Shown here: positions 1-30,687 of the stretch, piece after piece | Layout of the letters: each line of letters begins with the position of its first letter | Position numbering within the stretch: position 1 is the first letter of the stretch | Virus record (IMG/VR): IMGVR_UViG_3300010430_000013 | Span: 25,734-89,733 of that record | Source: a virus | Reading direction: 5' to 3' (one strand) | Length of the DNA: 64,000 nucleotides | Program-made: the position numbers and the translations under genes | The notes under the pieces: model-generated | Seen by the model: only the letters and a program-made list of their open reading frames with translations | Told to the model about the DNA's origin: nothing | Databases searched by the model: none

Positions 1-1
1 C

Positions 2-76
2 TCTGGATGGTTTTTTGATTTAGAAACATCCAGTGGCACATTTCATGCTGGAATTGGGCAGGGAGTAGTCCATAAT
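2..76 (+). mobile_element. C-terminal end of an intein in gmd
   Basis: SGWFFDLETSSGTFHAGIGQGVVHN|S matches intein blocks F/G with terminal His-Asn and Ser+1, in place of the expected Gmd LFNHE before SPRRG. Confidence 0.85.
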
Positions 77-577
77 TCCCCTCGTCGCGGTGAGAACTTT
101 GTGACTAGGAAAATTACAAAAGCCCTATGTAATGTAGCCAAAGGTGATCTAGCTTATCTCCACATTGGCAACATGGACGCCAAAAGAGACTGGGGACATG
201 CTCGTGACTATGTAAGAGGAATGTATCTGATGCTCCAGCAGGATTCCCCAGAAGACTACGTTCTAGCCACAGGAGAACAGCACAGCGTCAGAGAATTCAT
301 CGAACTAGCCGCTTTAGAGTTAGGAATTGAGATTGGCTGGACAGGCAAAGGACTTAGTGAAGAGGGGTATGTTAAAAGACTGTTCGACACAAAATATGGA
401 GATCCACCACTTGTAGAAGACGAAGTCATTGTGGTTGTTAATGAAGAGTTCTATCGACCGACCGAAGTCGATACCTTGTTGGGCGACCCCAGCAAAGCCA
501 AGAAGGAACTCTCTTGGTATCCTCAGGTTTCATTTAAATCCCTCGTCTCTGAAATGGTGGAAGCCGACTATGACTAA
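2..577 (+). CDS. gmd: GDP-mannose 4,6-dehydratase, C-terminal part (5' truncated), interrupted by an intein
   Basis: Frame open from base 2; SPRRGENFVTRKIT, GNMDAKRDWGHARDYVRGMYLMLQ, DYVLATG, RPTEVDTLLGDPSKAKKEL are diagnostic Gmd motifs. Confidence 0.95.
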   Translation, partial: SGWFFDLETSSGTFHAGIGQGVVHNSPRRGENFVTRKITKALCNVAKGDLAYLHIGNMDAKRDWGHARDYVRGMYLMLQQDSPEDYVLATGEQHSVREFIELAALELGIEIGWTGKGLSEEGYVKRLFDTKYGDPPLVEDEVIVVVNEEFYRPTEVDTLLGDPSKAKKELSWYPQVSFKSLVSEMVEADYD

Positions 578-755
578 CGATAGTCAAGGATATGGAGCAG
601 GAACATGTTTTAGATCTGGCCATGCGTTTGTTAAGATTTATGATAAGTCATACGGGGAAGCTGTGGGTGGACATGAGCCTACTTTTTTTAAAAGTATTGG
701 ATTTGGAACTAAAAACATCCTCATGATAAAAAAGCTTCTACTAAATAAAAAGTGA
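570..755 (+). CDS. hypothetical protein
   Basis: ATG at 570 overlaps the end of gmd; 61 aa. Confidence 0.45.
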   Translation: MTNDSQGYGAGTCFRSGHAFVKIYDKSYGEAVGGHEPTFFKSIGFGTKNILMIKKLLLNKK

Positions 756-791
756 ACTCATTTTACAATCTAGCCAACTGAGCTAAATACC

Positions 792-1010
792 ATGACCAGA
801 CCATATCGGGCGGTGATTGTCCTTGAGACTGACGACGGCTGGTGTGCAGCGGTCGCGGAATATGAGTCAGAGGAACTGTATTACGAGTGTTGCAGCGGTG
901 GTGAGTCATTCCCTGTGCCAGAAAGCGAAATCATGACAACCTGCAGACACCGTCACAGGTCGCCTGCGTCGTGTAGGCGATGTTGCTTACGCATGCAGAA
1001 GACGCTCTAG
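792..1010 (+). CDS. cassette 1 hypothetical protein, Cys/His-rich C-terminus
   Basis: ATG 6 nt after repeat 1; TAG stop lies in repeat 2. Confidence 0.75.
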   Translation: MTRPYRAVIVLETDDGWCAAVAEYESEELYYECCSGGESFPVPESEIMTTCRHRHRSPASCRRCCLRMQKTL

Positions 1011-1051
1011 CCAACTGAGATAGGAAACCAAACGGAAGGAAACGAAACCAA

Positions 1052-1753
1052 ATGTTTAACCCAGAAACCGGAAAACGAATCCACCTCACTCACGGAGCAG
1101 GCAACGGCGTGGATAAAGCCTGCTTAATTACCGCTTCCAACATGCTGATTGGTCGCGGACAAGACGGCGACAACAATAGTTGCGTCTGCCCTGTCCTGCG
1201 GAAATTCATTATCACTACCAACGACTCGATGCCCGAAGATTTGCTCAGCGAACTCTACGGTCCACTCGCATGGGAAATCCTTGGCACCGCAACCGGTGAC
1301 CCTGCAACCGAACAGCAGCGTGCGTATCGCTTTGTGGACTGGGCGGTGCGGGAGATTACACCAATAGCATTAAGGGCATCAGGGATGGGTGACCACGCAT
1401 CAAAGCTGAAGGCGCTGTCGCCAGTGGTAGACCAGCAGACCGCCCGTGCCGTCGCCCGTGCCGCCAGTGCCGCCCGTGTCGCCCGTGCCGCCGCCCGTGC
1501 CGCCGATGCCGCCTATGCCGCCGCCGCCGTCGATGCCGCCGTCGATGCCGCCGTCGATGCCTCCGCTTATGCCGCCGCCCGTGCCGCCGCCCGTGCCGCC
1601 GCCAGTGCCGCCCGTGCCGCCCGTGCCGCCGATGCCGAATTGATCTGGCGAAAGTGCCCTGACATTATCCGCGAGGTAGCTGCGATTGGGGACAGGCGAC
1701 CTGTTGAGACTGTAATTGACCACTGCGATTTAGCAGCCGCTCTAGCCGACTGA
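1052..1753 (+). CDS. cassette 2 Ala-rich repeat phage protein
   Basis: RBS AAGGA; AAxAA low-complexity tract; TGA stop lies in repeat 3. Confidence 0.85.
   Translation: MFNPETGKRIHLTHGAGNGVDKACLITASNMLIGRGQDGDNNSCVCPVLRKFIITTNDSMPEDLLSELYGPLAWEILGTATGDPATEQQRAYRFVDWAVREITPIALRASGMGDHASKLKALSPVVDQQTARAVARAASAARVARAAARAADAAYAAAAVDAAVDAAVDASAYAAARAAARAAASAARAARAADAELIWRKCPDIIREVAAIGDRRPVETVIDHCDLAAALAD
1441..1637 (+). repeat. degenerate GCC-GCC-NNT tandem repeat (coding, AAR/AAD/AAY/AAS units)
   Basis: gccgcccgt / gccgccgat / gccgcctat / gccgccagt units are directly visible. Confidence 0.9.
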
Positions 1754-1783
1754 GCTAGTTAACTAACCAGAAGGGAAATTGAA

Positions 1784-2041
1784 ATGGAACATCACGAAAA
1801 AGCAAACGAGCAGGAAGAACGTATCAAAGCACTCGAACAGATTGCGAGGCGATACCAATTCTTGCTTTCGCAATTCCAAATGCACTCGCCCGACATGGCT
1901 GGAGCGACTCGCTACCGGTTCCGCAATGGTGGCTGGCCTATGACACATTTTTGCGGCCCGACCATCGAGGCGGCGATTGATAATGCGATGTCGGAAGTAG
2001 AGCGGGAAAAAAAAGACACTCTAGCCAACGGAGCTAATTAA
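1784..2041 (+). CDS. cassette 3 hypothetical protein
   Basis: Fills the space between repeats 3 and 4; reads through repeat 4 because its TGA is changed to GGA. Confidence 0.75.
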   Translation: MEHHEKANEQEERIKALEQIARRYQFLLSQFQMHSPDMAGATRYRFRNGGWPMTHFCGPTIEAAIDNAMSEVEREKKDTLANGAN

Positions 2042-2042
2042 C

Positions 2043-2141
2043 ATGAGAATGATTGCAATTGAACTTATTTGTGCCGGATTGCTGATGGCTCTTGGGGTAG
2101 TCAAGTTAATCGAAATCATACACGACGCTCTAGCCAACTGA
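2043..2141 (+). CDS. cassette 4 small membrane peptide (32 aa; not in the ORF track)
   Basis: MRMIAIELICAGLLMALGVVKLIEIIHDALAN*; ATG 6 nt after repeat 4, TGA in repeat 5. Confidence 0.65.
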   Translation: MRMIAIELICAGLLMALGVVKLIEIIHDALAN

Positions 2142-2167
2142 GCTACACAACCAAGAGGTAATAAAAA

Positions 2168-2371
2168 ATGAACAAAATGCAATTGCAAAAGATTTCGAGC
2201 GACGTGTTCACGGTCAGCGTTGGCTGCGTGTCTATGGCGGTAGAGCTAGACAGCGATGACGAGAGGCATCGTCTCGTACTGCGAGACATGGTCGACGCAT
2301 ATAACGATGCCATTGAGTTTCGGACAGCCAAGGAACGGCATGCCGAATCACAATACAACAATACGCTATAG
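2168..2371 (+). CDS. cassette 5 hypothetical protein
   Basis: RBS GAGGT; TAG stop lies in repeat 6. Confidence 0.75.
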   Translation: MNKMQLQKISSDVFTVSVGCVSMAVELDSDDERHRLVLRDMVDAYNDAIEFRTAKERHAESQYNNTL

Positions 2372-2389
2372 CCAACTGAGCTGATAACT

Positions 2390-2596
2390 ATGAGTCGAGA
2401 AGAATATAGAAACTTGGAATACGCACTGGGCGGGCGCAAGGCAGCGGATAGGCATATAGCTTCGCGGTTACGTGAACTGGCGGATATTGTCGAATCAGAC
2501 GAGTGGCCAGACGTGATTAGCTGGCAAGACGATAGAGAGTTTGAGCCAATGATGACGACGGTAAAGCTGACGTTGTCACTGCCGCTGGGCGGGTAG
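2390..2596 (+). CDS. cassette 6 hypothetical protein
   Basis: ATG 6 nt after repeat 6; TAG stop lies in repeat 7. Confidence 0.75.
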   Translation: MSREEYRNLEYALGGRKAADRHIASRLRELADIVESDEWPDVISWQDDREFEPMMTTVKLTLSLPLGG

Positions 2597-2646
2597 CCAA
2601 CTGAGCTAGAAAAAGCTCTAGACAACTAATAAAGGAAACCAAACTT

Positions 2647-3018
2647 ATGTCCAATAACAAACAGCCAAATAGACACGTCTGGTTCTTCCGCCTTGCAGGT
2701 GGAGGAAACCAATGCACTGAATACAGAACTAGTGAAAAAGAAGCCGCGATGCGTCTCTTGCACGACGAATATGGAGAAACCGCAGTCGATGCTGTTCGGC
2801 GGGAGTTGACGTTTTTTGAATACGCTGGACTGCTCCGGTGTAATTACGAGGGGTACGGGCGGCAGGTGTATCAAGCGTTGCAGGACTTCTTTTTTCGGTG
2901 CGACCCGCGAGGACATAAGGGCTTTGACGACGAGACGTTAATCCGGTCGCAGTCCGACATCCAAGCAGGCAGGGTGCTGTCCACGGAGGAATACCTTGAG
3001 GACTTAAGGAAAGACTAA
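2647..3018 (+). CDS. cassette 7 hypothetical protein
   Basis: RBS AAGGA; stop immediately before the last repeat. Confidence 0.75.
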   Translation: MSNNKQPNRHVWFFRLAGGGNQCTEYRTSEKEAAMRLLHDEYGETAVDAVRRELTFFEYAGLLRCNYEGYGRQVYQALQDFFFRCDPRGHKGFDDETLIRSQSDIQAGRVLSTEEYLEDLRKD

Positions 3019-3051
3019 CGTTCTAGCCAAATGAGATAATAAGCATTAAAA

Positions 3052-3089
3052 TGCAAGCGCCGAAGTCGCCCGCCGCTTGTAGTTTTTTT
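3052..3089 (+). terminator. intrinsic terminator closing the cassette array
   Basis: TGCAAGCG...CGCTTGTA stem followed by GTTTTTTT. Confidence 0.7.
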
Positions 3090-3181
3090 ATTGTTGTGCG
3101 ACCAGGAGATAATTTTATAGGAATTTTTTCTGCGCTCATTCTTTTGTTGTTGACTGAAGTTAAACTCTAAGGACCATAAAT

Positions 3182-3427
3182 ATGTTAAATATTCTTGCTG
3201 CTTTCGGTGTGCTGCTTCTAGCGAGTTTTCCATTGATTGTTGGATACAAGATCATTCGATGGGTTCTCACAATTGAAAGAAGAATTGATGTAGTGGCTAA
3301 CGCTATTAACGAAGTGGCTCGCACGCAGATGGCCTCAAGCCCTGCGCTGGCTATTTCATCTGAAACGTCTGAAACTCAAATGGGCTTTGTCCAAGGAACC
3401 TACCATGAAGAAGATGGGAATTCATAA
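3182..3427 (+). CDS. membrane protein
   Basis: RBS AAGGA; N-terminal hydrophobic helix. Confidence 0.7.
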   Translation: MLNILAAFGVLLLASFPLIVGYKIIRWVLTIERRIDVVANAINEVARTQMASSPALAISSETSETQMGFVQGTYHEEDGNS

Positions 3428-3989
3428 TTTCCTGCTATTGGTCTATTTATTTCTGTTTCTCTTTGCGGTGTTTGTGCCGCTCGGCATTTGGAAACTTTTG
3501 GAGATTTTATTCTGATGCCCAGCTATGAACTTGGTAGAGCCACCATTGATTATATTTCTGGTAAAAATTCTGATCCATGCGATAATTGCGGTACCACTCA
3601 TGCAACAATGTATTCTGTTGGACTAGCGAAATCGCCTGGAGAAGAAAAGAACATTTCCTGGACCCTTTGTGTTACTTGTAGATCCCACCTAGAAGGCGTA
3701 TTTAATGAGCACACAGAGGACTGGGATTCAATCTTCTATTAAGTTGAGGTGAAATGATAGACTTAATAAACGCAATAGCTATTGTTGTATTGGTATTCTA
3801 TTGCTTTTATTGGCTACTTTGGATTAGTAAGGTTGAAAAATACATTGACTCTAAGGAAAAAGAGAATGGACAATAAACTAGTCATCACTACAAAAGCGTA
3901 CAGCGAATTAACCTATATTTTGAGGGAGCTGGTAGATGAAATACATGAATCACGCAGATGCTATCTTGTAGATGCTTTAAAAAAACTAG

Positions 3990-4412
3990 ATGATGAGATT
4001 TACACAACAAATCAAGAGGCATGGCAAAATTTTTAATCCATATTCTGATAACAGCTGGCCTTCAATAATCATAGCCCTCGCTTTAGTTGCGCTTTTATGT
4101 GGGTGGCTAATATATTCTCAAGAGAAACCAAAAGGTCCAATCATTCAAACTTGTGAGATGTGTGGGTCTGAATGGGAAGTATATCCTAGAGACCCAAACA
4201 GGCCAGTCCCATCCACTGTGGAATGGTGCTTTAATGATGGGTCATACTGTGAAGAAGGTTTCAAGATGATTATCGAATCAATGGAACACGGAGAAACTCC
4301 TGAACAAAATGTTCAATGGATCAATCATTGTATGAGGTGTAAGGGCTGTAGGTGTGCCGCATTTAGTCCTGAAAGGTGGAAAGAACTAATGGAAGCTTTG
4401 GAGAGAATCTAA
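3990..4412 (+). CDS. membrane-anchored Cys-rich hypothetical protein
   Basis: TM helix, CxxC and CxxCxxCxC. Confidence 0.65.
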   Translation: MMRFTQQIKRHGKIFNPYSDNSWPSIIIALALVALLCGWLIYSQEKPKGPIIQTCEMCGSEWEVYPRDPNRPVPSTVEWCFNDGSYCEEGFKMIIESMEHGETPEQNVQWINHCMRCKGCRCAAFSPERWKELMEALERI

Positions 4413-4552
4413 TGGAATTTTTTATATTTCTGATATTATGGCTAGCGGCTGTCGCGATAGTGTTTATCATGTACTTCATAATGTATGACATGAACAGAAG
4501 ATTTTCAAGGAATGGCTTCCGTAGTTAATTATGAATTAATTGAGATGCAAAA

Positions 4553-4750
4553 ATGAGTAACTATATTGGACTTCAACTTAGAGTTTCTAGAAAATTTCTT
4601 TTTATCCCCAGGAAAGTAGGAAAAAGGCTTATGTGGCTTCGCTGGGTTAAAGAAGTAAATTTTTGGTTTGATCCTCACAATTGCTGCATCCCTAGGTGGG
4701 CTCATGTTTGTTTCTACGTACCGAAGTATCTAAGGATAAATAATGATTGA
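4553..4750 (+). CDS. hypothetical protein (paralog of 5147)
   Basis: KFLFIPRKV..WLRWVK motif shared with the 5147 ORF. Confidence 0.65.
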   Translation: MSNYIGLQLRVSRKFLFIPRKVGKRLMWLRWVKEVNFWFDPHNCCIPRWAHVCFYVPKYLRINND

Positions 4751-4915
4751 GTTTCTAACTTTTTTTGGTGGAATGTCACTGGTGATGCTCGGTATCGTGG
4801 GTGTGTTTTTTACAATACATTTCATCTGTGAGACTTACGATTGGAGAAACAAGACAAAGAACCAAATTTCGGATCTTCAGTCAAGGGTACAAGAACTTGA
4901 AAACAAGGAACAGTA

Positions 4916-5125
4916 ATGCATCACATAACATGCGGCGAATATTGGATTAATTACAATTCAGATTTTAGTGGTGACCTCCACATTAGAAAAGATGATTTTT
5001 TTGTAAAGCTTCCTATGGAACTTTTCGAAGCTATAGTTGCCCAAAAAATTCGAACTGAAATGATTACAACTTTAGAGAATGCTGATAATCAAACAATTCT
5101 TTATGGGAAGAACCATGAAAAATAA
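4916..5125 (+). CDS. hypothetical protein
   Basis: Overlapping stop/start in an operon; YNSDFSGDL. Confidence 0.65.
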   Translation: MHHITCGEYWINYNSDFSGDLHIRKDDFFVKLPMELFEAIVAQKIRTEMITTLENADNQTILYGKNHEK

Positions 5126-5354: not shown

Positions 5355-5557
5355 GAGTATATGAACCCGGAACAACCGTATTTATTGGAGATGGTACCAT
5401 TCAAGGAGAGCTTTTGAAGGTGTGTATATGCAATGAAAATTACGTTAAATATCAGGTCGTTTGGTGGAATGGCGGGGAAAGAAAAGTAAAGTGGTTAGAT
5501 TATAGGGAAATTCATACTAACTATAACAGCGAAACCATTAGAATAGACTACGAATAA
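5351..5557 (+). CDS. hypothetical protein
   Basis: Coupled start; compact beta-rich sequence. Confidence 0.65.
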   Translation: MRVYEPGTTVFIGDGTIQGELLKVCICNENYVKYQVVWWNGGERKVKWLDYREIHTNYNSETIRIDYE

Positions 5558-5610
5558 TGGATTTTGGTGTATGTAAGGTATACACCCGACCCACCCGAAA
5601 CAATGGAAAA

Positions 5611-6258
5611 ATGATCATTCTAAGTGACCTACATTTAGGCTCTAATCGTAACTATCTATATAACTTAAACAGGTGGCTAAAAAAGGAGAATAAAGACCAA
5701 GAAGTAGTTCTGCTTGGGGACACGTTCGACGATTATAAGAAAAGGTTTCTAACCTATGACGACTTGGTGTTTCTGGAGAGAGTTAGAGAATTCAATTCAG
5801 TTCACATATTTCCTGGAAATCACGACGCTCAAGTCTTTCGGAATCATTCTCACCACTTTGCGTCTTATTGTGGGAAAATGCACTGCAATCTAGATAACCT
5901 TCCAGTTCATCTAACCCCCAACATCTTGGCCTTGCATGGCGACCATTGGGACAGAACAAACCCAATCCTTATGAGATGCGCAGATGTAGTGTACGACTTA
6001 ATGCTGGCTAATAACAGAACCGGTTACGGCTGGATCAAACAGCTAGCTAAAAGACGCTGCATAAATTCTTTTCTAAAAAATGCAAAAATTTTGTTTGAGG
6101 AAAAGCCTGAAGTAGACTATATATTAGTAGGCCATCTTCATCAGCAACAGTCGTGGGAGCTACTTCCCGGTAAGACACTAGTGTGCTCTGGATGCTTTGT
6201 TGAGGAGGAAACTTTCCTAACTGTCCAGGGCAAAACCATAACCATGAGAAGGTTTTAA
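5611..6258 (+). CDS. calcineurin-like metallophosphoesterase (LpxH-like)
   Basis: SDLHLG, GDTFD, GNHD, HGD, GHLH motifs. Confidence 0.9.
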   Translation: MIILSDLHLGSNRNYLYNLNRWLKKENKDQEVVLLGDTFDDYKKRFLTYDDLVFLERVREFNSVHIFPGNHDAQVFRNHSHHFASYCGKMHCNLDNLPVHLTPNILALHGDHWDRTNPILMRCADVVYDLMLANNRTGYGWIKQLAKRRCINSFLKNAKILFEEKPEVDYILVGHLHQQQSWELLPGKTLVCSGCFVEEETFLTVQGKTITMRRF

Positions 6259-8464: not shown

Positions 8465-8899
8465 ATGACTGATTTAGAAAAAGAAAAGTACATTAACGTT
8501 TCTGAGCGGCAAATTGATTTTAAGCCCATTACTGAAAGTGATTTTTTCGAATCTACGGAAGAAATGGTATACTCTGCCCAGGAAGCCGAACAAGTAGCGT
8601 CCCATCCATTATCTAATATTTACGCAAATAACTTGAGATGGGCGCTCAGTTCCTTTAATTTGTTCGAATTTCACACAAATTTTCCAATTACAGAGCAAGT
8701 TCTGGACACAATTGAAAAAACCGCAGGAGTTGAAAGCATTTCTCAGTATACTAAGTACCGTGGGATTATCAGCGTTGGGCGGCTTTTTGATGATGTTGTC
8801 GTCAGAAATGATATTCGAGAGGGTATTACCAAAACTTTCCAGAAGCAGAACGAAGACATCGAACCGCTTTTAAATGAACAAACTAAAGAGGAGGACTGA
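8465..8899 (+). CDS. hypothetical protein
   Basis: 144-aa ORF with RBS. Confidence 0.7.
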   Translation: MTDLEKEKYINVSERQIDFKPITESDFFESTEEMVYSAQEAEQVASHPLSNIYANNLRWALSSFNLFEFHTNFPITEQVLDTIEKTAGVESISQYTKYRGIISVGRLFDDVVVRNDIREGITKTFQKQNEDIEPLLNEQTKEED

Positions 8900-10785: not shown

Positions 10786-13782
10786 ATGGAAAACAATCTT
10801 CCCACCCCTTACCAAGAGTTCATTCATCTTTCACGTTACGCTCGATGGCTTCCAGAAGAAAAAAGACGAGAGACTTGGGAAGAAACGGTTGATAGATTAG
10901 TTAACTTCTTTGAAGAGCACCTTAAGGAAAACTTTGACTTTGAGTTAGGCAAGGCAAAAAACCGCCTCCGCAAAGGAATCTTGAATCTTCAGGTTGTTCC
11001 AAGCATGAGGGCGCTTTGGGCTGCTGGTCCCGCTGCATCACGCGATAATGTGGCATGTTACAACTGTTCAGCTTTGCCTATCGACAAGCCCGCATCTTTT
11101 GATGAATTATTTTATATTTTAATGAATGGCTGTGGCGTCGGATTCTCAGTTGAACGACAGTTTATCAACAAGCTTCCTGAGGTGTCTGATAGCTTCCATG
11201 AGTCCGATACAACCATCGTGGTGAGTGATAGCACCATCGGCTGGTGCAAGGCGTTAAAAGAGCTTATAGGCATGCTCTACGTGGGGCAGGTTCCAAGATG
11301 GGATCTATCGAAGATTCGCCCTGCCGGAACTCCACTTAAAACCAAAGGCGGTCGAGCTTCTGGTGGCGAAATTCTCGGTCAACTGTTTGACTTTGTTGTA
11401 GTTACCTTTAAGGGTGCATCGGGCCGAAAGCTAAACTCTCTTGAGTGTCACGATATCTGCTGCAAAATTGCTGAAATCGTAACCGTCGGAGGTTGTCGCC
11501 GTTCAGCTTTGCTGAGTTTGTCCAATTTGTCAGATTTACGCATGAGAGAAGCAAAAGTTGGGCGTTGGTGGGAAGAAAGCGCTCAACGTGCAATGGCAAA
11601 CAACAGTGTGGCTTACACAGAAAAGCCAGATATGGGCATCTTTATGGAAGAATGGAAGTCCCTCTATGACAGTAAATCTGGCGAGAGAGGTATCTTTAAT
11701 CGGGAGTCTTGCAAAAAAATTATCGAAAAGATTGGTCGCAGGGATACTGATTTTGAGTTTTTAACTAATCCGTGTGTCACATCTGATACATGGATTGATA
11801 CTTCCGAAGGTCCGATTCAAGCATTCAATCTGATCAACAAGCCATTTCTGGCAACAGTAAATGGAAAAAATTATGAATGTAAAACAGGTTTCTTTAAAAC
11901 GGGACATAAAGATGTTTACGAAATCGAAACCTCTCGCGGATACTCAATTAAATGCACCTCTGACCACAAAATCTTAACAATTAAAGAAGGTCAAGAGCTT
12001 TGGGTTGAGGCGCAACATCTAGACGAGAGTTCAAATATCTGTATTAATCAGCTTGTTCATCAGGATGATTACGATTTGGATTTGAATGAATTTCATCAAG
12101 GTTGGCTAATGGGGGAAGTAGCTGGAGACGGCGGTCACAATCCTGAAAAATATCCTTCGTATGTCAGATTCTGGGGACATAATCGACATCAAATGTCGTC
12201 TATGGCTCACGATTTCGTTAAAGATTTGCCTTATGATTCGCACAGGCCAACAGCGCTTGCTGATGATCCCACTGACAACGGAACTTATAGTCAATCGGCC
12301 AGCAGAGCGCTTGACGAGCTACTGGAGGGCATGCTTGAGCCAGAAACCAAGAATATCCTGCCAGCCCTAGAGGGGGCGTCAGACTCTACTGTGAGAGGCT
12401 TCTTGAGGGGCATTTTTGATGCTGATGGAACCGTGCTTTTTAATAAAGAGAAGGGGCGCTCAGTAAGGCTTGGTCAGAACAATTTAGACCGACTTAAGTC
12501 AGTTCAGAGAATGCTGCATCGTTTTGGTATTGAGTCTTCGGTTTATCAAAATCGAAAACCTGAAGGTTATTACGAAATGCCTGACGGAAAAGGAGGTAAT
12601 AAAGAATACTTCTGTAAGGCTATGCATGAACTGGCTATCTCTCGTGAAAACATTTGCAAGTTTGCAGAATTAATTAATTTTTATGATGCTGACAAAAAAA
12701 CAAAACTAACTGAGTGCATTGATTCGTTAAGTCGAACTCCGTATAAAGACAAAATGACCACGAATTTCGTGTCTCGTCGTCATATCGGTCAGCAAGACGT
12801 TTATGATTGCACAGTGGATGAAGTGCATCGGTTTGGAGCGAATGGAATTATTATTCATAATTGTAGCGAAATATTACTCAGACCTCGTGGATTCTGTAAC
12901 CTCTCAGAAGTAATCCTTAGGGAGGATGATACAGAAGAAACAATCCTTGAAAAGATTGAACTAGCAACAATTCTTGGAACCATCCAAAGCACCTTTACTA
13001 ATTTTCGCTATCTTAGCAAAAACTGGAAGAAGAACGCAGACGAAGAGCGACTGCTTGGTGTTTCGATGACTGGAATTATGGACTGTCCTCTTACGAATGA
13101 TTCCGTAGAAGGTCTTGAAGGAAGGTTAGAGAGATTCAAAGAAAGGGCCATTGAAGTAAATAAAAAATGGGCAAAGTCTATTGGTATTAATCAGTCTGCT
13201 GCTATTACCTGCGTTAAACCGTCAGGCAATACTTCACAGCTTTGCGACACTGCAAGTGGAATTCATACTCGTCACTCTCCTTACTACATCAGAACGGTTA
13301 GGTCTGACAAAAAAGACCCGCTAACCAAACTAATGATTGATAAGGGGTTTCCATATGAGGACGAAATTAACAATCCTCAAAATATTGCAGTGTTTAGTTT
13401 TCCAATTAAAGCTCCTGAGCAATCGTTTTTTAGAAATGATAAGACCGCTCTTGAGCAGCTAGAGCTTTGGAAGAAGTATCAGTTGCATTACTGTGAGCAT
13501 AAGCCATCTATTACGGTTTCGGTAAAAGAAGACGAATGGCTTGAGGTTGGTGCCTGGGTTTATAAAAACTTTGATTTGATGAGCGGCGTTTCTTTCTTGC
13601 CGTTCAGTGATCATGTCTATAAGCAAGCGCCTTATCAGGATTGCACTAAAGAACAATACGAAGAGCTTTTGGCAAAGATGCCGAAAACTATTGACTGGTC
13701 TGAACTATCTGCTTACGAGTCCTCGGATATGACTACCGGAGCACGAGAATTAGCATGTACTGCTGGAGGCTGCGAAATTTGA
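10786..13782 (+). CDS. nrdJ: class II (B12-dependent) ribonucleotide reductase with intein
   Basis: SRYARW, RETWEETVDR, PSMRAL, YNCS, GGCRRSA, NPC/CSEI, FCNLSE, TCVKPSG, C-terminal LACTAGGCEI; no nrdB/nrdF small subunit adjacent. Confidence 0.92.
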   Translation: MENNLPTPYQEFIHLSRYARWLPEEKRRETWEETVDRLVNFFEEHLKENFDFELGKAKNRLRKGILNLQVVPSMRALWAAGPAASRDNVACYNCSALPIDKPASFDELFYILMNGCGVGFSVERQFINKLPEVSDSFHESDTTIVVSDSTIGWCKALKELIGMLYVGQVPRWDLSKIRPAGTPLKTKGGRASGGEILGQLFDFVVVTFKGASGRKLNSLECHDICCKIAEIVTVGGCRRSALLSLSNLSDLRMREAKVGRWWEESAQRAMANNSVAYTEKPDMGIFMEEWKSLYDSKSGERGIFNRESCKKIIEKIGRRDTDFEFLTNPCVTSDTWIDTSEGPIQAFNLINKPFLATVNGKNYECKTGFFKTGHKDVYEIETSRGYSIKCTSDHKILTIKEGQELWVEAQHLDESSNICINQLVHQDDYDLDLNEFHQGWLMGEVAGDGGHNPEKYPSYVRFWGHNRHQMSSMAHDFVKDLPYDSHRPTALADDPTDNGTYSQSASRALDELLEGMLEPETKNILPALEGASDSTVRGFLRGIFDADGTVLFNKEKGRSVRLGQNNLDRLKSVQRMLHRFGIESSVYQNRKPEGYYEMPDGKGGNKEYFCKAMHELAISRENICKFAELINFYDADKKTKLTECIDSLSRTPYKDKMTTNFVSRRHIGQQDVYDCTVDEVHRFGANGIIIHNCSEILLRPRGFCNLSEVILREDDTEETILEKIELATILGTIQSTFTNFRYLSKNWKKNADEERLLGVSMTGIMDCPLTNDSVEGLEGRLERFKERAIEVNKKWAKSIGINQSAAITCVKPSGNTSQLCDTASGIHTRHSPYYIRTVRSDKKDPLTKLMIDKGFPYEDEINNPQNIAVFSFPIKAPEQSFFRNDKTALEQLELWKKYQLHYCEHKPSITVSVKEDEWLEVGAWVYKNFDLMSGVSFLPFSDHVYKQAPYQDCTKEQYEELLAKMPKTIDWSELSAYESSDMTTGARELACTAGGCEI
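11773..12861 (+). mobile_element. intein with LAGLIDADG homing endonuclease (363 aa) at the active-site Cys of NrdJ
   Basis: NP|CVTSDT...TSDHK...GEVAGDG...LRGIFDADG...VYDCTV...IIHN|CSE. Confidence 0.95.
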
Positions 13783-21286: not shown

Positions 21287-22255
21287 ATGAAAATTTCGGA
21301 ACTAGTAAAAAAGATTACTTTCTCTTTTGAAGAGTTTGAGGCTATGCAAGGCGAAAAGCCAATTGTAAGTCTTAGTCCTACATTTAATTCAATTTGCGGA
21401 GGCATTAAAGGCGGCTCGTTTGTTTTGATGGGTGGACCACCTAAATGCGGTAAAACAATTACCTGTCTAGACTTTGCTGCACGCGCCCAGCAAGCTGGAT
21501 ATACAGTGCTTTATCTTAATTCAGAAGGAAGACTCGCCGTAAGAGATATCAAGGGCTGCAAAAAACTTGACTATTCGGTAGAAAAGTTTAAATTGATTAC
21601 TTCTACCACTGAGAACAAAGTTTCTGCGGAGCAATATCTAGGCTCTGTACTTCATTACATGGAAACCGAAGAACGCTTGTTTGTTATTGCGGACTCTCTT
21701 AGCCATATGGAAGCAGAGAAACAGCTTAACGATGCAACTTGCGACCTTACAAGAGATGCCTCTCCAAGAATCATGTCTCAATTCTGCAAGAAGCTGGCTC
21801 CATACATCAGCTCAAGTGACCACATTTTTCTAGGCGTTGTCCATTTAATTGCCAATACTTCTGGTTATGGAAAATCCGTAGTAGAAGGAGGAGGCAATAA
21901 AATTCAATATGCTGCTGATATTAAGCTTCGTCTAAAAAATTACGAACCTATGACGAATGCTGATACCTATAGGGACAGGGAATACGGTCGTAAAATTAAC
22001 TGGATTTGCGAAACGTCTAACATGGGCTTCCCGAAGATGGAAGGAACGTCTTATGTTATCCTTGGAGAGGGCATTGACGACATTGCTGAGCTTTTGCCCA
22101 TTGCACTGGAAACTGGCGTAATGAGCAAGGGGGGAGCGTGGTATAATTATGGAGAGCAAAAGTTTCAAGGAGAGAAAAAGACTATCGAAGCACTGCGCGA
22201 CAATCCAGAAATGTACAAAGAAATTAAAGATGAAGTAGAGGCAAGACTAGCATAA
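21287..22255 (+). CDS. recA: RecA/UvsX-like recombinase
   Basis: GPPKCGKT, VIADSL, GGNKIQYAA, GAWYNYGEQKFQG. Confidence 0.9.
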   Translation: MKISELVKKITFSFEEFEAMQGEKPIVSLSPTFNSICGGIKGGSFVLMGGPPKCGKTITCLDFAARAQQAGYTVLYLNSEGRLAVRDIKGCKKLDYSVEKFKLITSTTENKVSAEQYLGSVLHYMETEERLFVIADSLSHMEAEKQLNDATCDLTRDASPRIMSQFCKKLAPYISSSDHIFLGVVHLIANTSGYGKSVVEGGGNKIQYAADIKLRLKNYEPMTNADTYRDREYGRKINWICETSNMGFPKMEGTSYVILGEGIDDIAELLPIALETGVMSKGGAWYNYGEQKFQGEKKTIEALRDNPEMYKEIKDEVEARLA

Positions 22256-23608: not shown

Positions 23609-25057
23609 TTGCAAAAAGATTTATCGGCAGAAAATGCCATCATTTCCTCTGTATTTAAGGGCGGCGAAGAAATATTTTGGGACCTACAACCAATCATTGT
23701 AGAACCTAGAACTTTTACAAACAATAACAATGGCGTCTTATGGGACATCTATGAGAAGGCTTTCGTAACCCATAAGCAAAAAACGATAGATTTACCTAGT
23801 ATCTTCAGCATTGCAAAAGAACGGGGTCTCGATTCTTGGGTGGGTCGAGACTCTTTTCAAAAGCATCTTGATGACATTGTCGGTTTGCCTTGTGATCCAG
23901 CCAACGCCTTACCTAAGGCTAAAAAAATCAGACGGCTTTATGTCTGTAGAATGGCGCAAGAATGCGTGGCAAACATCGGTAACGACTTGGAAATCGTAAC
24001 CGGCGACGAACCAATTAGTCAAATATTCTCAATTCTAGAGAAGCCGATTTTCGACTTAGCTGGAAAGATTAATTCGGTTGAGCAAGAACCCGTAATGATG
24101 GGTAACGCCGTTGACGAGTATCTAAAAGCTAGAACTGAAAATTCCGGCGAAGACATTGGCGTATCAACTATGTTGCCAATTTATGATTGGGCGCTAGGTG
24201 GTGGCTTACGTCCAGGCGCACTAGACATCATCGCAGCCAGAGCTAAACAGAATAAGTCCTCTTTGGCGATGAACCAAGCAATCCACTTTGCCAAGATGGG
24301 CCTTAAGGTTCTCTATGTAGATACAGAGCTTTCCTTGGATGACCAAATGTCTCGCGTTTTGTCGAGTCAAACCGGCGTAAAGATGCGCAACATTGAGAAT
24401 GGAGCGTATGCCTCAAGCGAGAACGATGCTCGGCTGATTGACAGCGAAGCAGAAGTCCTTAAAGAAATACCTATTTACCATTTAGATGTCAGTCAGGTTC
24501 CGTCATTCGAGGAACAAATCTCAATTATGAATAGGTGGGTTAGAAAAGTCCCAGGAGTAAACTTTGACAATTCTTCTAATCCTTGTGTTGTAATTTATGA
24601 CTATATCAAACTGCTCAATAAAGACCAGCTCAGTAGGAATGTGGCAGAGTATCAACAGATTGGTTATATGGTGAGTCAATTAAAAAACTTTGCGCAAAAA
24701 TATTCCTTGCCGATTCTGGCGTTGGCTCAACTAAATAGAAGCGGAGTTTCAGATCAAACCTCAACATCTCTCAGTCAATCTGATAGAATTCTATGGTTCG
24801 CATCTAGTGTATCCATCCTAGCTAAGAAAACGCCAGAAGAAATCGAATCAGACGGCGCAGAGAACGGAACACACAAACTTTACGTGTCAGATGCCCGACA
24901 CGGCCCAGGAACTCCGTTCGGTTCTCATATTAATCTGGAAATACAACAAGACTCATTCAAGATGAAAGAAGTCGGTATGAACGTTGCAGAAGAAGATGAA
25001 GACGACGGAAAATCCAAAAAGAAAAAGAAAGAAAAAGTAACTGAAATTGATTTCTAA
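23609..25057 (+). CDS. dnaB: replicative DNA helicase
   Basis: AENAIIS, ARAKQNKS (variant Walker A), DTEL, DYIKLL, LAQLNR, RHG. Confidence 0.92.
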   Translation: MQKDLSAENAIISSVFKGGEEIFWDLQPIIVEPRTFTNNNNGVLWDIYEKAFVTHKQKTIDLPSIFSIAKERGLDSWVGRDSFQKHLDDIVGLPCDPANALPKAKKIRRLYVCRMAQECVANIGNDLEIVTGDEPISQIFSILEKPIFDLAGKINSVEQEPVMMGNAVDEYLKARTENSGEDIGVSTMLPIYDWALGGGLRPGALDIIAARAKQNKSSLAMNQAIHFAKMGLKVLYVDTELSLDDQMSRVLSSQTGVKMRNIENGAYASSENDARLIDSEAEVLKEIPIYHLDVSQVPSFEEQISIMNRWVRKVPGVNFDNSSNPCVVIYDYIKLLNKDQLSRNVAEYQQIGYMVSQLKNFAQKYSLPILALAQLNRSGVSDQTSTSLSQSDRILWFASSVSILAKKTPEEIESDGAENGTHKLYVSDARHGPGTPFGSHINLEIQQDSFKMKEVGMNVAEEDEDDGKSKKKKKEKVTEIDF

Positions 25058-28718: not shown

Positions 28719-29099
28719 ATGGCTAACTCTTACAATCACTCGGTTCTGGTCGGCAACGTTGTTCGTGATACGGAAATTCGCGATGCCGGAAAGTCTAAGG
28801 TAGCAGACAATGCTATCGCCATTACGGAGACTTTCGGGGAAAAGGAAGTAACAACATTTGTTGACATTACTCTTTGGGGACGAAATGCTGAAACGTTTCA
28901 GAAGTTCTGCCCTAAAGGTCGCACGGTCTTGATTGAAGGCTCTCTTCGTCAAGACAAGTGGACAGACAACGACGGCAACAAACGTTCTAAAATGTTTGTT
29001 AATGTCGACCGATTTGTTCTTTTAGGCTCAAAGCCTGGCGGTGGTCAGCAGCAGGAAACTGTTGCGGCAGGAGCAGGCTCGGATGATCTCCCCTTCTAA
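28719..29099 (+). CDS. ssb: single-stranded DNA-binding protein
   Basis: LVGNVVRD, KGRTVLIEGSL, DDLPF tail. Confidence 0.95.
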   Translation: MANSYNHSVLVGNVVRDTEIRDAGKSKVADNAIAITETFGEKEVTTFVDITLWGRNAETFQKFCPKGRTVLIEGSLRQDKWTDNDGNKRSKMFVNVDRFVLLGSKPGGGQQQETVAAGAGSDDLPF

Positions 29100-29130
29100 G
29101 CCTCCCTCTCGCTTAGAAGGCACTTCGATG

Positions 29131-29164
29131 CGCCTGCGTGCTCGTAGCACGCAGGCGTTTTTTA
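29131..29164 (+). terminator. intrinsic terminator after ssb
   Basis: 12-bp stem CGCCTGCGTGCT/AGCACGCAGGCG followed by a T-run. Confidence 0.85.
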
Positions 29165-29181
29165 TTCTTTTGGAGTTGTTT

Positions 29182-30687
29182 ATGTATCACCCCGGCGTAA
29201 TGACTCACGGCTCTGTTTTGCAAAGTGCAGTACACCCGGAGCATATTCAGGATTTTATCAATAATTCTGACTACTCCATGCTGCCAATCCTTGACTGGAA
29301 TCTTAGTCAGGCTTACCCGTATATAGACTCGACCGAACAACCTGTAATCGGTCTATTGAAAAACTTTACACAAGATAATGTTGAGATAACCTGCGCCCTC
29401 TATGCCCTCAATCGAAAGGGGTTTGGCGAGCTGCTCAGAATATCCAACGGGCTCCCAATTGCGGATAATTGCAAGAATATTGCAGCACTCTCGCCGGAAG
29501 CTTTAAATATCCCGGATCTTGAAGATATTGACCTGCATATCAAGACATTCAATCCTATAGCCCCAGCGCTCGTTCTAAGGGACTCTCAGCTTGATCACCA
29601 TAAGGTACTCATTAACAAAGCAAAAGGCGAATACGACGCGCCTGTGCCCCTAGAAAACGATGTTACCGATTGGTCTTGTTTAGCGCCGCTTTATGAGGCC
29701 GTAGAGAAATACAGTTTGGACAACAATCCTAGGCTTCCTCACTTTCCAACGGGAGACAAAACTGAAGACGAATTTCTCCGCGAACTCTGCGTTAAATCCT
29801 TAAAAGATAAAAATTTAGAGAGTGAAATATACCTTAGCCGTTTAAATTATGAGCTACAGACGTTCGAAAACGCCGGAATGAGTGGTTATTTCCTAATTAT
29901 GTGGGATATTTGCCGCTTTATTCAGGAGAGTGGCTCTATGTTGGGGGCTGGTCGTGGGTCTGCTGCGGGTTGTTTAGCGAGTTATCTGCTGGGCGTTACT
30001 AAAGTTGACCCGATTAAGTACGACCTAATCTTCGAAAGATTCTATAATCCTGACCGAAAGGGCGTACCCGATATCGATTGCGACATTGTGCCGGAATTTA
30101 GACCTAAAGTTATTGATTATTTAAGAGACAAGTATGGTTCCGAGAAAGTTGCACAGCTTTGCACTTACACTACTTTTAAAGGTCGAGGAGCCCTCAAAGA
30201 AACCCTAAAGCAACACGGAATGTCGCACGCAGAGGCAAATAAGGTAACTGAATGCCTTCATGAAGAATCTAAAATTGATCCACAGCTCAAAGACCAGTAT
30301 AATTCATTAGGGACTAAAAGTGTGCTTCTGTACACTTTAATGCATAGTCGAAGACTCGATTTCTGGTGTAAATTTAATAGGAAGACAAGTAAATACACTG
30401 GTAAGTGGGCGGATGCCTTCAAACTGGCAGTTGAGATGGACAGAACTAATATTGCAATTGGCAAACACGCTTCGGCTTTTATTCTGTCAGATAGAAATTT
30501 GCTAGATCAGTGTCCTGTTATACCAGATCCGGCCAACGGGCCTCACCCAGTTTGTGGCTGGGAAATGAATGCGGCAGAAAGATCAGGTTTGGTTAAGTTG
30601 GATTTGTTGGGACTGGACTGCTTGTCTAAATACCAAAGAAGCAGAGAAGTCATATCTAGTAAATCAATCTACTTGGAGGCCATATAA
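29182..30687 (+). CDS. dnaE: DNA polymerase III alpha, N-terminal half (degenerate PHP + catalytic palm)
   Basis: GYFLIMWD, GRGSAAGCL, FERFYNPDR, PDIDCD, GKHASA, LVKLDLLGL. Confidence 0.93.
   Translation: MYHPGVMTHGSVLQSAVHPEHIQDFINNSDYSMLPILDWNLSQAYPYIDSTEQPVIGLLKNFTQDNVEITCALYALNRKGFGELLRISNGLPIADNCKNIAALSPEALNIPDLEDIDLHIKTFNPIAPALVLRDSQLDHHKVLINKAKGEYDAPVPLENDVTDWSCLAPLYEAVEKYSLDNNPRLPHFPTGDKTEDEFLRELCVKSLKDKNLESEIYLSRLNYELQTFENAGMSGYFLIMWDICRFIQESGSMLGAGRGSAAGCLASYLLGVTKVDPIKYDLIFERFYNPDRKGVPDIDCDIVPEFRPKVIDYLRDKYGSEKVAQLCTYTTFKGRGALKETLKQHGMSHAEANKVTECLHEESKIDPQLKDQYNSLGTKSVLLYTLMHSRRLDFWCKFNRKTSKYTGKWADAFKLAVEMDRTNIAIGKHASAFILSDRNLLDQCPVIPDPANGPHPVCGWEMNAAERSGLVKLDLLGLDCLSKYQRSREVISSKSIYLEAI

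Follow-up and report, generated by a model that had tools for sequence, protein, structure and literature searches.

A tRNA-derived repeat with stop codons in three frames delimits small genes in an uncultured marine-sediment phage

The small genes in one block of an uncultured marine-sediment phage are delimited by a short repeat that matches the reverse complement of part of a tRNA and carries stop codons in three reading frames. Within the 64,000-nt window analysed here, which was taken from the studied 89.7-kb phage record (G000), positions 771-3039 hold eight co-oriented copies and one degenerate copy of (GACGCTC)TAGCCAACTGAGCTA, and these separate seven unrelated small ORFs. We see roughly even chances that the repeat is a portable gene-junction module, in which a tRNA-derived recombination linker is combined with a stop/restart signal. 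The features of the array are as follows.

663..692, + strand: terminator-like hairpin and T-run, 3' of a GDP-mannose dehydratase gene, at the AT-rich left border of the array
770..786, + strand: repeat copy 1, without the GACGCTC extension; stops TAG, TGA and TAA all present; the ORF1 ATG lies 6 nt on
792..1010, + strand: ORF1, 72 aa, ending ...QKTL on the copy 2 TAG
1001..1023, + strand: repeat copy 2, with the GACGCTC extension; right arm GATA; third stop TAG
1052..1753, + strand: ORF2, 233 aa, Ala-rich, ending ...LAAALAD on the copy 3 TGA
1736..1758, + strand: repeat copy 3, TAGCCGAC variant, with the leader GTTAACTAACCA... 3' of the copy
1784..2041, + strand: ORF3, 85 aa, reading through the mutated copy 4 TGA (GGA) to a TAA at 2039-2041; repeat-encoded tail ...DTLANGAN
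2015..2037, + strand: repeat copy 4, with TGA changed to GGA
2043..2141, + strand: ORF4, 32 aa, hydrophobic, ending ...HDALAN on the copy 5 TGA
2124..2146, + strand: repeat copy 5, full 22-mer; the sole copy without the third stop (TAC)
2168..2371, + strand: ORF5, 67 aa, ending ...NNTL on the copy 6 TAG
2363..2401, + strand: repeat copy 6 and junction GAGCTGATAACTATGAG, a 39-nt module
2390..2596, + strand: ORF6, 68 aa, ending on the copy 7 TAG
2594..2634, + strand: repeat copy 7, then the degenerate copy (TAGACAACTAATAAAG) 25 nt on; an empty interval between two junctions
2647..3018, + strand: ORF7, 123 aa, with its own TAA (3016-3018) 5 nt 5' of the last copy
3024..3039, + strand: repeat copy 8, the most diverged (2 mismatches), all three stops kept; right border of the GC-rich island
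3051..3092, + strand: GC-rich hairpin then T-run (fold), likely an intrinsic terminator closing the array operon

The array is not a chance assembly of similar sequences. A search of the window with the 15-mer at up to 3 mismatches returned 11 matches against 1.55 expected, and none of 100 shuffles reached 11. All eight copies are on the + strand, their TAGs starting at 771, 1008, 1743, 2022, 2131, 2369, 2594 and 3024; the degenerate ninth copy lies at 2619. When up to 2 mismatches are allowed, the 89.7-kb record as a whole yields no + strand match other than these eight, and the motif is absent from the ~87 kb beyond this single short array.

The array coincides with an island of distinct base composition. 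Its GC content is 0.534, compared with 0.352 (578-770) and 0.379 outside, in a phage region of 35-38% GC, and the ends of the island coincide with the first and last repeat copies. GC3 is 0.45-0.62 for array ORFs and 0.33-0.44 for resident ORFs. We propose that the array genes are of foreign origin, and their composition suggests that they derive from GC-richer phages. A point against the junction-module reading is that one transfer event might have brought all 2.3 kb of the block into G000. At the right end of the array, the terminator scan listed only a - strand version of the hairpin (3073-3053). ORF2 belongs to a widespread phage family without known function, which a protein atlas places in unnamed phage clusters only; the atlas also gave a weak lead to Imm5_like (0.83).

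We identified a second, independent array of five copies in an unrelated phage contig of 55% GC (L131/G001), and it contains the same ORF2 cassette (L131 8001-8678) with different neighbours. The two phages share this cassette (73% nucleotide identity over 766 nt), the 39-nt junction, a DUF6948 protein and part of a 478-aa protein, and little else. The G000 module at 2363..2401 is 90% identical to the L131 junction at 7700, and the leader GTTAACTAACCA... of copy 3 also precedes the ORF2 homologue in L131. As in G000, the motif was not found in the rest of G001 (~26 kb) outside its array. Variants of the right end of the repeat travel together with the downstream leader in both arrays (GCTG+ATAACyATGAG; GCTAGTyAACTAACCA), which places breakpoints inside the 12-nt core; leader modules have also been exchanged independently of ORFs, so breakpoints lie outside the site as well. 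Searches of Pfam and PHROG gave no family for the cassette ORFs of either array.

Read on the opposite strand, the repeat corresponds to tRNA nt 8 to about 33. Of 117 matches to the exact 18-mer in viral contigs, 105 fall within tRNA genes called by aragorn, and in the IMG/VR scan 34 of 41 matches to the 21-mer fall inside called tRNA genes. The other seven are two in G001, one in G002, a single copy in L144, and L093, L140 and L146; the last three were considered as further arrays and rejected, since they look like uncalled or end-cut tRNAs. In eight of the 13 copies of the two arrays the tRNA-sense match extends 7-11 nt further, whereas an extension of at least 7 nt occurred in 4 of 2000 random sequences. 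One end of the tRNA-like block is sharply set at nt 8; the other varies over nt 22-33, reaching the anticodon loop at most. These matches indicate that the repeat is tRNA-derived by ancestry. Aragorn called no tRNA in the window or in the whole G000 record, Rfam gave no tRNA-clan match for 500-3300 even at E values up to 10 (a YrlA match at E = 3 was dismissed as chance), no full tRNA gene was found at either end of either array, and no stable RNA fold was found at the junctions (z-scores -1.35 to +1.62). We attach only a minimal probability to the notion that the array is a decayed tRNA gene cluster or that its tRNA likeness is accidental. Clusters of tRNA genes in phages do contain multiple copies of this 18-mer, but no copy here has acceptor, anticodon or T arms, aragorn and Rfam were negative, and the boundaries are identical in all copies; an exact 18-mer common to >100 tRNA genes cannot be a chance likeness.

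The initial annotation of this DNA had described the repeat as a three-frame stop signal, and this description is supported. In the 16-mer that begins at 770, TAG is found at position 2, TGA at 10 and a further stop codon at 15, in three different frames, and the third stop is present as TAA, TAG or TGA in seven of the eight window copies, that at 2131 having TAC. ORF1 (1010), ORF5 (2371) and ORF6 (2596) end on the repeat TAG, and ORF2 (1753) and ORF4 (2141) on its TGA; where copy 4 has GGA for TGA, ORF3 continues to the TAA at 2039-2041. Three ATGs (792, 2043 and 2390) follow the 16-mer at a distance of exactly 6 nt, also as annotated. When the second array is added, giving 13 copies from two unrelated phages, the first stop survives in all 13, the second in 11 and the third in 12. 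Ten of the 12 upstream ORFs in both arrays run into the repeat (four end on TAG, five on TGA and one passes through the mutated TGA), and two have their own stop. None of the 12 uses the third-frame stop, so a role in ending the listed ORFs does not account for its conservation. Nor does tRNA ancestry explain it: the third stop occurs in 12 of 13 array copies but in 30 of 101 tRNA-type contexts of the same 18-mer (Fisher p = 1.2e-4 for 10 of 11 CTA-bearing copies, a value that is optimistic because array copies are not independent, two junction types being shared by descent). It is also kept in all four copies with a mutated right arm. Since the same nucleotides are read in two frames, as ..TL* and ..DALAN*, conservation is at the nucleotide level.

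The proposal that repeat-encoded residues have replaced the native C-termini of cassette proteins fits the ORF1, ORF3 and ORF7 families but not ORF2. ORF1 ends earlier than its homologues, whose tails are longer and different, and none of seven homologues has the TL end; likewise, the TLAN tail is found in none of nine ORF3 homologues. Within a single 90% cluster of the ORF7 family, P0002 ends ...CDPRHDALAN, whereas P0136 and P0137 end ...CDPRGNDG, such that the difference between these >90% identical proteins begins exactly at the junction. In ORF2, the repeat-encoded ALA equals the native tail of the family, and no replacement is therefore visible; the match could reflect microhomology capture, or part of the repeat could be native to the ORF2 gene. 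Taken with the ORF ends and the stops of the enlarged set, the replaced tails support the stop-signal half of the initial reading.

The same complementarity to tRNA could be given a different meaning, namely that the repeat is an antisense decoy or sensor that pairs with the 5' halves of tRNAs cut by host anticodon nucleases, and either soaks up the halves or switches the array genes on. We consider this very unlikely. Over 18-26 nt, and stopping at the anticodon loop, the repeat in the mRNA is indeed an exact complement of tRNAs (nt 8-33) of the Ala(UGC), Val(UAC), Gly(GCC) and Met types, and the array genes are small accessory genes without known function; however, the repeat region overlaps coding 3' ends, and stop conservation and leader co-variation are explained without a decoy.

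Translational coupling of each captured fragment to the next cassette, also part of the initial annotation, is plausible only for junctions with the 6-nt spacer. Four of the 12 junctions with a downstream ORF have a start exactly 6 nt after the 16-mer (792, 2043 and 2390, and L131 7721); the others have 21-50 nt to the start and separate SD-like leaders. In the window, four of seven junctions (gaps of 26-50 nt) have their own SD-like leader, and coupling via the repeat is therefore not needed there. In copy 4, as read from the sequence, the change of TGA to GGA creates GGAG 9 nt 5' of the ORF4 ATG at 2043. We infer translational restart at the repeat.

These features would also suit a pure expression signal of one phage lineage, similar to the start-associated sequences (SAS) or stoperators of mycobacteriophages: a factor-bound mRNA or DNA motif for termination, re-initiation or transcription, the block of genes having moved into G000 once, with no cassette mobility at the motif. 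The exact 6-nt spacing at four of 12 starts, the GGAG of copy 4, stops that are better conserved than symmetry and the existence of an unrelated junction repeat in L126 are in keeping with this idea, as are SAS-like features including a short start distance and an upstream stop codon (PMC3203893). We nevertheless regard it as doubtful, because the motif is limited to one short array in each phage, is common to two phages that otherwise have little in common, and has no stable RNA structure, because the tails of nearly identical proteins diverge exactly at the junction, and because an exact tRNA identity of 18-26 nt is unexpected for a ribosome-binding signal.

The second half of the initial annotation, in which the core TAGC-CAACTGA-GCTA resembles a tyrosine-recombinase core site, is not supported. 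The core occurs as described in five of eight window copies, and in nine of 13 with the second array, and the other copies deviate. Tyrosine-recombinase cores typically have inverted arms of 7-13 bp around a 6-8-bp overlap region; here the arms are 4 bp, and the right arm, the least conserved part of the repeat, is broken in four of 13 copies with no compensating change. Thus, in the larger set the stops persist, but arm symmetry is perfect in only nine of 13 copies. The arm pairing is probably not a tRNA helix and would be a product of this D-loop variant. Neither tyrosine nor serine recombinases (PF00589, PF00239) were found in G000, G001 or G002, which are 59%, 43% and 29% complete, respectively.

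A broader form of the site-specific reading is an integron-like array of att sites, in which a tRNA-modelled att core (D-arm to anticodon loop) would receive circular one-gene cassettes, inserted serially by a recombinase encoded elsewhere, with the stops as a secondary adaptation. The sharp end of the tRNA-like block at nt 8 and its variable end at the anticodon loop at most are consistent with this account; Williams, in 2002, is said to have named the anticodon loop as a usual integrase crossover sublocation. The left extension is missing from the first copy of each array, as it would be in an attI-type site. The first G000 copy lies behind an AT-rich stretch after a terminator, in a partial record with no PF00589 match. 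The single L144 copy is part of a tRNA 5' fragment, with a tyrosine-integrase ORF ~350 nt away, and serial integration into tRNA genes leaves elements parted by partial tRNAs, according to bioRxiv 10.1101/2020.12.28.424599. However, we think the account rather unlikely given the lack of matches to the recombinase families in the three partial records, 4-bp symmetric arms that are not maintained, the lack of a full tRNA gene flanking either array, leader modules that swap independently of ORFs with breakpoints also outside the site, and a conserved sequence of 15-26 bp, shorter than the ~40-nt att sites that the same preprint describes.

In the gene-junction reading that we prefer, the module would derive from the 5' half of a tRNA, taken in antisense (nt 8 to ~33, covering the D-arm and the 5' side of the anticodon stem), and would punctuate a single operon of small, unrelated accessory genes. 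As a recombination linker, it would allow genes to be joined, swapped and carried between phages at the repeat, with joints often cutting into the 3' end of the incoming gene. The likeliest route would be short-homology recombination, as proposed for the promoter-early stem-loops (PeSLs) of T4. A RecA-family gene (RecA/UvsX-type recombinase) is present in G000, and neither ERF nor RecT was found in G000 or G001. As a stop and restart signal, the module would end any ORF fused upstream, because it has stops in all three frames, and translation would resume 1-50 nt downstream via the 3' half of the module (GAG; GGAG in copy 4) or via an attached leader with AAGGAA or AAGAGG. A stronger version, on which we would place only a modest bet, is an integron-independent capture system: a tRNA-antisense site of 15-26 bp would join single genes or fragments in any frame, and the stops and restart would make each of them expressible from one operon. 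If so, the site would find homology in almost any genome, since the tRNA D-arm is universally conserved.

We observed arrays as DNA only in the two independent cases described here; further cases are deduced from protein tails. Five additional proteins of the ORF2 clade from other assemblies (P0009, P0010, P0011, P0013 and P0014) have the ALAN end, and a sixth protein of this clade, P0012, is the L131 copy. The repeat is absent from ORF7-family loci from JGI metagenomes (L125-L130). L126 has a junction repeat of its own, an SD plus ATGA that occurs four times. Among cultured phages, blastn of 600-3200 gave no match, tblastn of ORF7 gave none, and tblastn of ORF2 gave one weak, partial match. 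Searches with the neighbouring 140-aa and 233-aa proteins found no G000 relative with an empty site. In prokaryote genomes, alignment of ORF2 found no relative and the junction 21-mer had 0 matches, and a two-copy pattern scan of IMG/VR returned a tRNA cluster and two tandem-repeat genes but no further array. G001 and G002 are 99.99% identical over their shared 15,218 nt, and a cassette differing between close genomes was not seen in this pair. One sequencing run with this DNA is listed, a marine sediment metagenome, and no RNA run is listed. Comparison of its contigs with positions 1-5000 revealed G001-like junctions but no excision product, precise cassette deletion or repeat-to-repeat deletion; the joints reported for this run are explained by a co-occurring G001-like phage or have short sides, those with sides of 21-22 letters at 85% likeness being discounted.

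Integron attC sites are imperfect palindromes of 57-141 bp with RYYYAAC/GTTRRRY cores. By comparison, the conserved sequence here is 15-26 nt long, and there is neither an inverted-repeat family around the junctions nor a stable fold. Integron gene cassettes with attC sites have been reported in phages (PMC9892861), and the G000 array resembles integrons in having co-oriented, promoterless, unrelated single-gene cassettes behind one promoter, with a recombination-site-like repeat after each. The differences from integrons are that no intI (PF00589) was found in the three incomplete phage records, the arms are 4 bp, and the G000 repeat overlaps the coding end of the cassette.

Among the closest known parallels are the PeSLs of T4-type phages (Arbiol et al. 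2010, PMC2839356; Comeau et al. 2014, PMC4122927). PeSLs are likewise short conserved repeats that lie between small, non-essential ORFs without known function, within the plastic part of a large phage genome, and are exchange points between otherwise unrelated sequences that double as expression signals. They consist of sigma70-like promoters and terminator stem-loops, and the G000 repeat has neither: promoter-like sites number two in 500-3300 against 2.6 expected, one of them using the first hexamer of copy 8 (TAGCCA). In contrast to PeSLs, the G000 repeat lies within one operon, overlaps ORF 3' ends, has three-frame stops and is tRNA-derived. Mini-circles were shown for PeSLs, whereas none was observed for the G000 array.

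SAS of Cluster K mycobacteriophages are 13-bp asymmetric sequences in one orientation, 3-7 bp before the starts of non-structural genes; in some cases the stop codon of the preceding gene falls within them, and their function is given as unknown (Pope et al. 2011, PMC3203893). SAS and the G000 repeat are both asymmetric, short, one-orientation repeats in a region of small non-structural genes, located a few nt before the starts of varied gene families. However, SAS contain AGGAG, span half a genome and belong to a single phage cluster, whereas the G000 repeat is tRNA-derived with three-frame stops, occupies one compact foreign island and is common to unrelated phages. The array also resembles tycheposons (bioRxiv 10.1101/2020.12.28.424599) in having direct repeats that are tRNA-gene pieces between adjoining horizontally acquired units. 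There, the repeats are ~40 nt, lie beside a full-length tRNA gene and bound kilobase, integrase-carrying elements of bacterial chromosomes; here, in a phage, the units are single ORFs of 99-702 nt, no full tRNA or integrase was found, and the D-arm fragment is antisense to the genes. A literature search revealed no description of a phage junction repeat derived from a tRNA D-arm, and the tycheposon supplementary examples might hold comparable small arrays.

Only in a handful of models is the mechanism of small-gene shuffling in phage plastic regions known; the PeSLs of T4-like phages are one example, with integrons as the bacterial case. The junction described here is compact, sequence-defined and of tRNA-antisense origin, present in two unrelated uncultured phages and, judging from protein tails, in several further assemblies. 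It predicts that a 22-nt element suffices both to terminate any incoming frame and to act as a swap point. If confirmed, the repeat would provide a searchable marker of mobile phage accessory genes in sediment viromes, and would be a natural counterpart of engineered three-frame stop linkers.

The repeat that separates and flanks ORF1 to ORF7 is real. Its 15-mer, TAGCCAACTGAGCTA, occurs in eight + strand copies from 771 to 3038 with at most two mismatches, and there is a ninth, degenerate one at 2619; at the same threshold, the rest of the record contains a single match, on the - strand. When up to three mismatches are allowed, the window contains 11 matches to the 15-mer against 1.55 expected, a number reached in none of 100 shuffles. 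The initial annotation described the element as a stop signal in all three frames, and the details of that description are borne out: TAG, TGA and a third stop lie in three different frames; the third is present in 7 of 8 window copies, as TAA, TAG or TGA; ORF1, ORF5 and ORF6 terminate at the repeat TAG, and ORF2 and ORF4 at its TGA; copy 4 carries GGA, and ORF3 reads through it to a TAA at 2039-2041; and the ATGs at 792, 2043 and 2390 begin exactly 6 nt past the 16-mer. ORF7 is an exception, with its own stop 5 nt upstream of the last copy. The T-to-G change in copy 4 (2030-2043) removes the TGA and gives rise to GGAG, 9 nt before the ATG of ORF4; the ORF3 TAA stop lies 1 nt before that ATG. 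At 2594-2634, a full copy is followed 25 nt on by the degenerate copy, which has TAA in place of TGA; the empty interval resembles a cassette slot that has lost its insert.

In its composition, the array stands out as an island. GC content is 0.534 at 771-3039, as compared to 0.352 at 578-770 and 0.379 at 3040-3300, the first and last repeat copies coincide with the shift, and GC3 is 0.45-0.62 for the cassette ORFs and 0.33-0.44 for neighbouring phage ORFs. Since terminator-like hairpins with T-runs flank the array, the seven ORFs look like one operon:

663-692, terminator-like hairpin and T-run, before the array
about 3051-3092, GC-rich hairpin and T-run, after the array (RNA fold)

We detected no stable RNA structure at the junctions (fold z-scores -1.35 to +1.62), no excess of sigma70-like promoters (2 found, 2.6 expected), no match to Rfam families at E values up to 10, and no known function for the cassette proteins. 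The 89.7-kb IMG/VR record, of which the window spans bases 25734-89733, has an estimated completeness of 59%, and the stretch is present in one public run, a marine sediment metagenome. Window genes encode ribonucleotide reductase, a DnaB-like helicase, a RecA-family protein and a DNA polymerase (phrog_405); the polymerase is in two ORFs about 3 kb apart (29041-30687 and 33635-35221) whose matches follow one another along the profile (313-615, then 619-1054). Aragorn called no tRNA genes anywhere in the record, the window included.

A protein search with ORF2 located a second array, on the one viral contig recovered (L131; 27,981 nt, GC about 0.55); these two arrays were inspected as DNA. It has five co-oriented copies of the repeat:

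L131 7231, repeat copy
L131 7700, repeat copy
L131 7959, repeat copy
L131 8668, repeat copy
L131 9040, repeat copy

There, one upstream ORF ends at TAG, three end at TGA (...QDALAN, ...ADALAN and ...QGALAY) and one has its own stop; one ORF begins 6 nt past the 16-mer. Across both arrays, the 12 upstream ORFs end at TAG (4), at TGA (5), by readthrough of a mutated TGA (1) or at their own stop (2). In each of the two phages, a metallophosphoesterase gene follows the array within 2.5 kb (window 5557-6258; L131 9311-9979, - strand), and the two proteins have no mutual match at E < 1e-5.

In reverse complement, the repeat is a canonical tRNA D-arm. More than 115 viral contigs contain the exact 18-mer, and 105 of the 117 matches listed fall within tRNA genes called by aragorn, most commonly Ala-TGC (31), Met (27) and Lys-TTT (14); most of the remaining 12 resemble tRNAs that are truncated or went uncalled. 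The consensus of the 13 copies from the two arrays reaches upstream to gaCGCTC. In the tRNA orientation, the match to real tRNA genes goes on past the 15-mer by 7-11 nt in 8 of 13 copies, reaching about nt 33 at most; an extension of 7 nt was attained by 4 of 2000 random sequences. On the other side, the match ends sharply at nt 8. From these limits, the repeat is antisense to tRNA nt 8 to about 22-33 and lacks any acceptor, anticodon-loop or T-arm part. The choice of the D-arm may reflect an ancestral att site, the near-universal homology of this segment, or pairing with tRNA halves.

Among the 13 copies, TAG is conserved in 13, TGA in 11 and the third stop in 12. The D-arm sequence itself accounts for the first two stops and not for the third. 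The matches listed give 101 distinct contexts of the 18-mer in viral contigs, most of them tRNA genes; the 18-mer is followed by A in 30 of these, by C in 48, by T in 23 and by G in none, so that a stop forms in 30% of contexts. In the arrays, A or G follows 10 of 11 CTA-bearing copies (Fisher p = 1.2e-4, which is optimistic because the copies are non-independent and two junction types are shared by descent). Two array copies have TGA as the third stop instead, and all four right-arm mutants (GATA twice, GCTG twice) keep a third stop. None of the 12 upstream ORFs uses the third-frame stop, which counts against a simple stop-signal reading. One frame of the same repeat nucleotides yields ..TL* and another ..DALAN*, and hence conservation is at the nucleotide level. 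We conclude that the stop-signal half of the earlier claim holds.

The other half, that the repeat resembles a tyrosine-recombinase core site, is not supported. The TAGC/GCTA arms are only 4 bp long and are perfect in 9 of 13 copies; every break falls in the right arm, and none is compensated. Pairing of the D-stem (GCTC/GAGC) is intact in just 5 of 13 copies. Phage_integrase and Resolvase domains were absent from the incomplete records of the two array phages (G000, the window's record, and G001, which is L131) and of a further record, G002, with control genomes positive in 14/14 and 12/14 cases. We retain an att-site origin of the repeat as a rival to our main reading; one case that bears on it is L144, a viral contig with 66% GC. 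There, a single repeat copy lies within the 5' fragment of a tRNA, and an ORF for a tyrosine integrase is about 350 nt away:

L144 about 10995-11035, tRNA-Ala-like 5' fragment, acceptor to anticodon loop
L144 11381-12289, tyrosine-integrase ORF

Such tRNA fragments can be att remnants, and this one, in which aragorn called no tRNA, may be an att remnant retaining the tRNA 5' half; L144 is, however, one case. The fragment holds the same 26-nt stretch as the L131 copy at 8668.

Protein tails cut short or replaced at the repeat were seen in the ORF1, ORF3 and ORF7 families; in ORF2, the repeat-coded residues are indistinguishable from native ones. Seven small ORF1 homologues have tails that are all unlike the window's ...RMQKTL and mostly longer, and none ends in TL. 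The tails of nine ORF3 homologues diverge past AEVEREK, with the repeat-coded TLAN in none. The ORF7 homologue P0002 ends in ...CDPRHDALAN, the repeat-coded tail of ORF4, and P0136 and P0137, from the same 90% cluster, end in ...CDPRGNDG; the window ORF7 runs on for 30 further residues. The six closest ORF2 homologues end in ALAN, and the native tail of the family, including members without the repeat, is LA[DE]AL[A], a likeness for which capture by microhomology or selection favouring a native-like tail would account. ORF2 also contains, at window 1431-1646, a 9-nt-periodic GCC-rich repeat encoding an Ala-rich segment (AARAA/AADAA) of variable length among homologues, which draws many unrelated contigs in the sediment run (depth 209 versus about 9). 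HMMER matched residues 29-45 of ORF1 (792-1007) to three giant proteins of 2889-4551 aa, two of which have 8-16 repeated stretches like the short Cys/Gly/Glu-rich segment of ORF1.

G001 and G002 are the same phage (99.99% identity over 15,218 nt). Both G000 and G001 carry the ORF2 cassette (73% over 766 nt) and a 39-nt junction (window 2363-2401), and they have in common a DUF6948 protein and a portion of a protein of 478 aa; otherwise the two are unrelated. The DUF6948 protein (G000:C1:3446-3772, before the window; paralogues at G001:C1:23013-23387 and 23641-24060) is about 70% identical between them. The neighbours of ORF2 differ between the two arrays, and right-end variants of the repeat co-vary with the leader that follows: GCTG with an ATAACyATGAG leader stands before different ORFs in G000 and G001, and GCTAGTyAACTAACCA precedes ORF3 in the window and the ORF2 homologue in L131. 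Because right-end variants travel with leaders, the breakpoints are placed among the 12 nt with which the repeat begins (on the linker reading, strain pairs differing by one cassette would break inside TAGCCAACTGAG), and junction-plus-leader modules have been reassorted relative to ORFs. The contigs of one sediment run reveal that a G001-like phage co-occurs and that other sequences run on past the repeat; no precise cassette deletion was seen among them.

Most likely, the repeat is a portable junction, for which two jobs are proposed; the mechanism is one that we infer. First, it would be a short sequence at which small accessory genes join and are exchanged between phages, as suggested by the foreign GC of the island, by one cassette that both phages carry next to different neighbours, by the co-variation of leaders and by the tail swaps. 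A presumed enzyme would act here; G000 has a RecA/UvsX-type gene (window 21287-22255), and a domain search found neither ERF nor RecT in G000 or G001. Second, the repeat would end whichever frame is fused upstream and support restart. At junctions of the 6-nt class, the repeat GAG is 9 nt upstream of the ATG, and the TGA-destroying change in copy 4 turns it into GGAG at the same position; the remaining junctions have AAGGAA or AAGAGG leaders. In outline, the first job resembles that of the PeSLs of T4-type phages, short junctions for gene joining and exchange (PMC2839356, PMC4122927), and the second resembles the SAS repeats of Cluster K mycobacteriophages (PMC3203893), whose function is itself unproven. 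A separate junction repeat, of 18 nt, occurs in L126, an unrelated phage-like contig that encodes a homologue of ORF7:

L126 801-818, AAGGAGCTAAGCGAATGA
L126 990-1007, AAGGAGCTAAGCGAATGA
L126 1235-1252, AAGGAGCTAAGCGAATGA
L126 1937-1954, AAGGAGCTAAGCGAATGA

It encodes the C-termini of upstream ORFs (..KELSE/..KELIE), contains an SD, ends in an ATGA stop/start overlap in 3 of 4 copies, and has GAGCTAA in common with the 3' half of the window repeat. We found no description in the literature of a phage junction repeat derived from a tRNA D-arm. The general kind is already known, namely repeats conserved at junctions that serve modular exchange or act as translation signals; the array repeat is real and reproducible, and is apparently undescribed.
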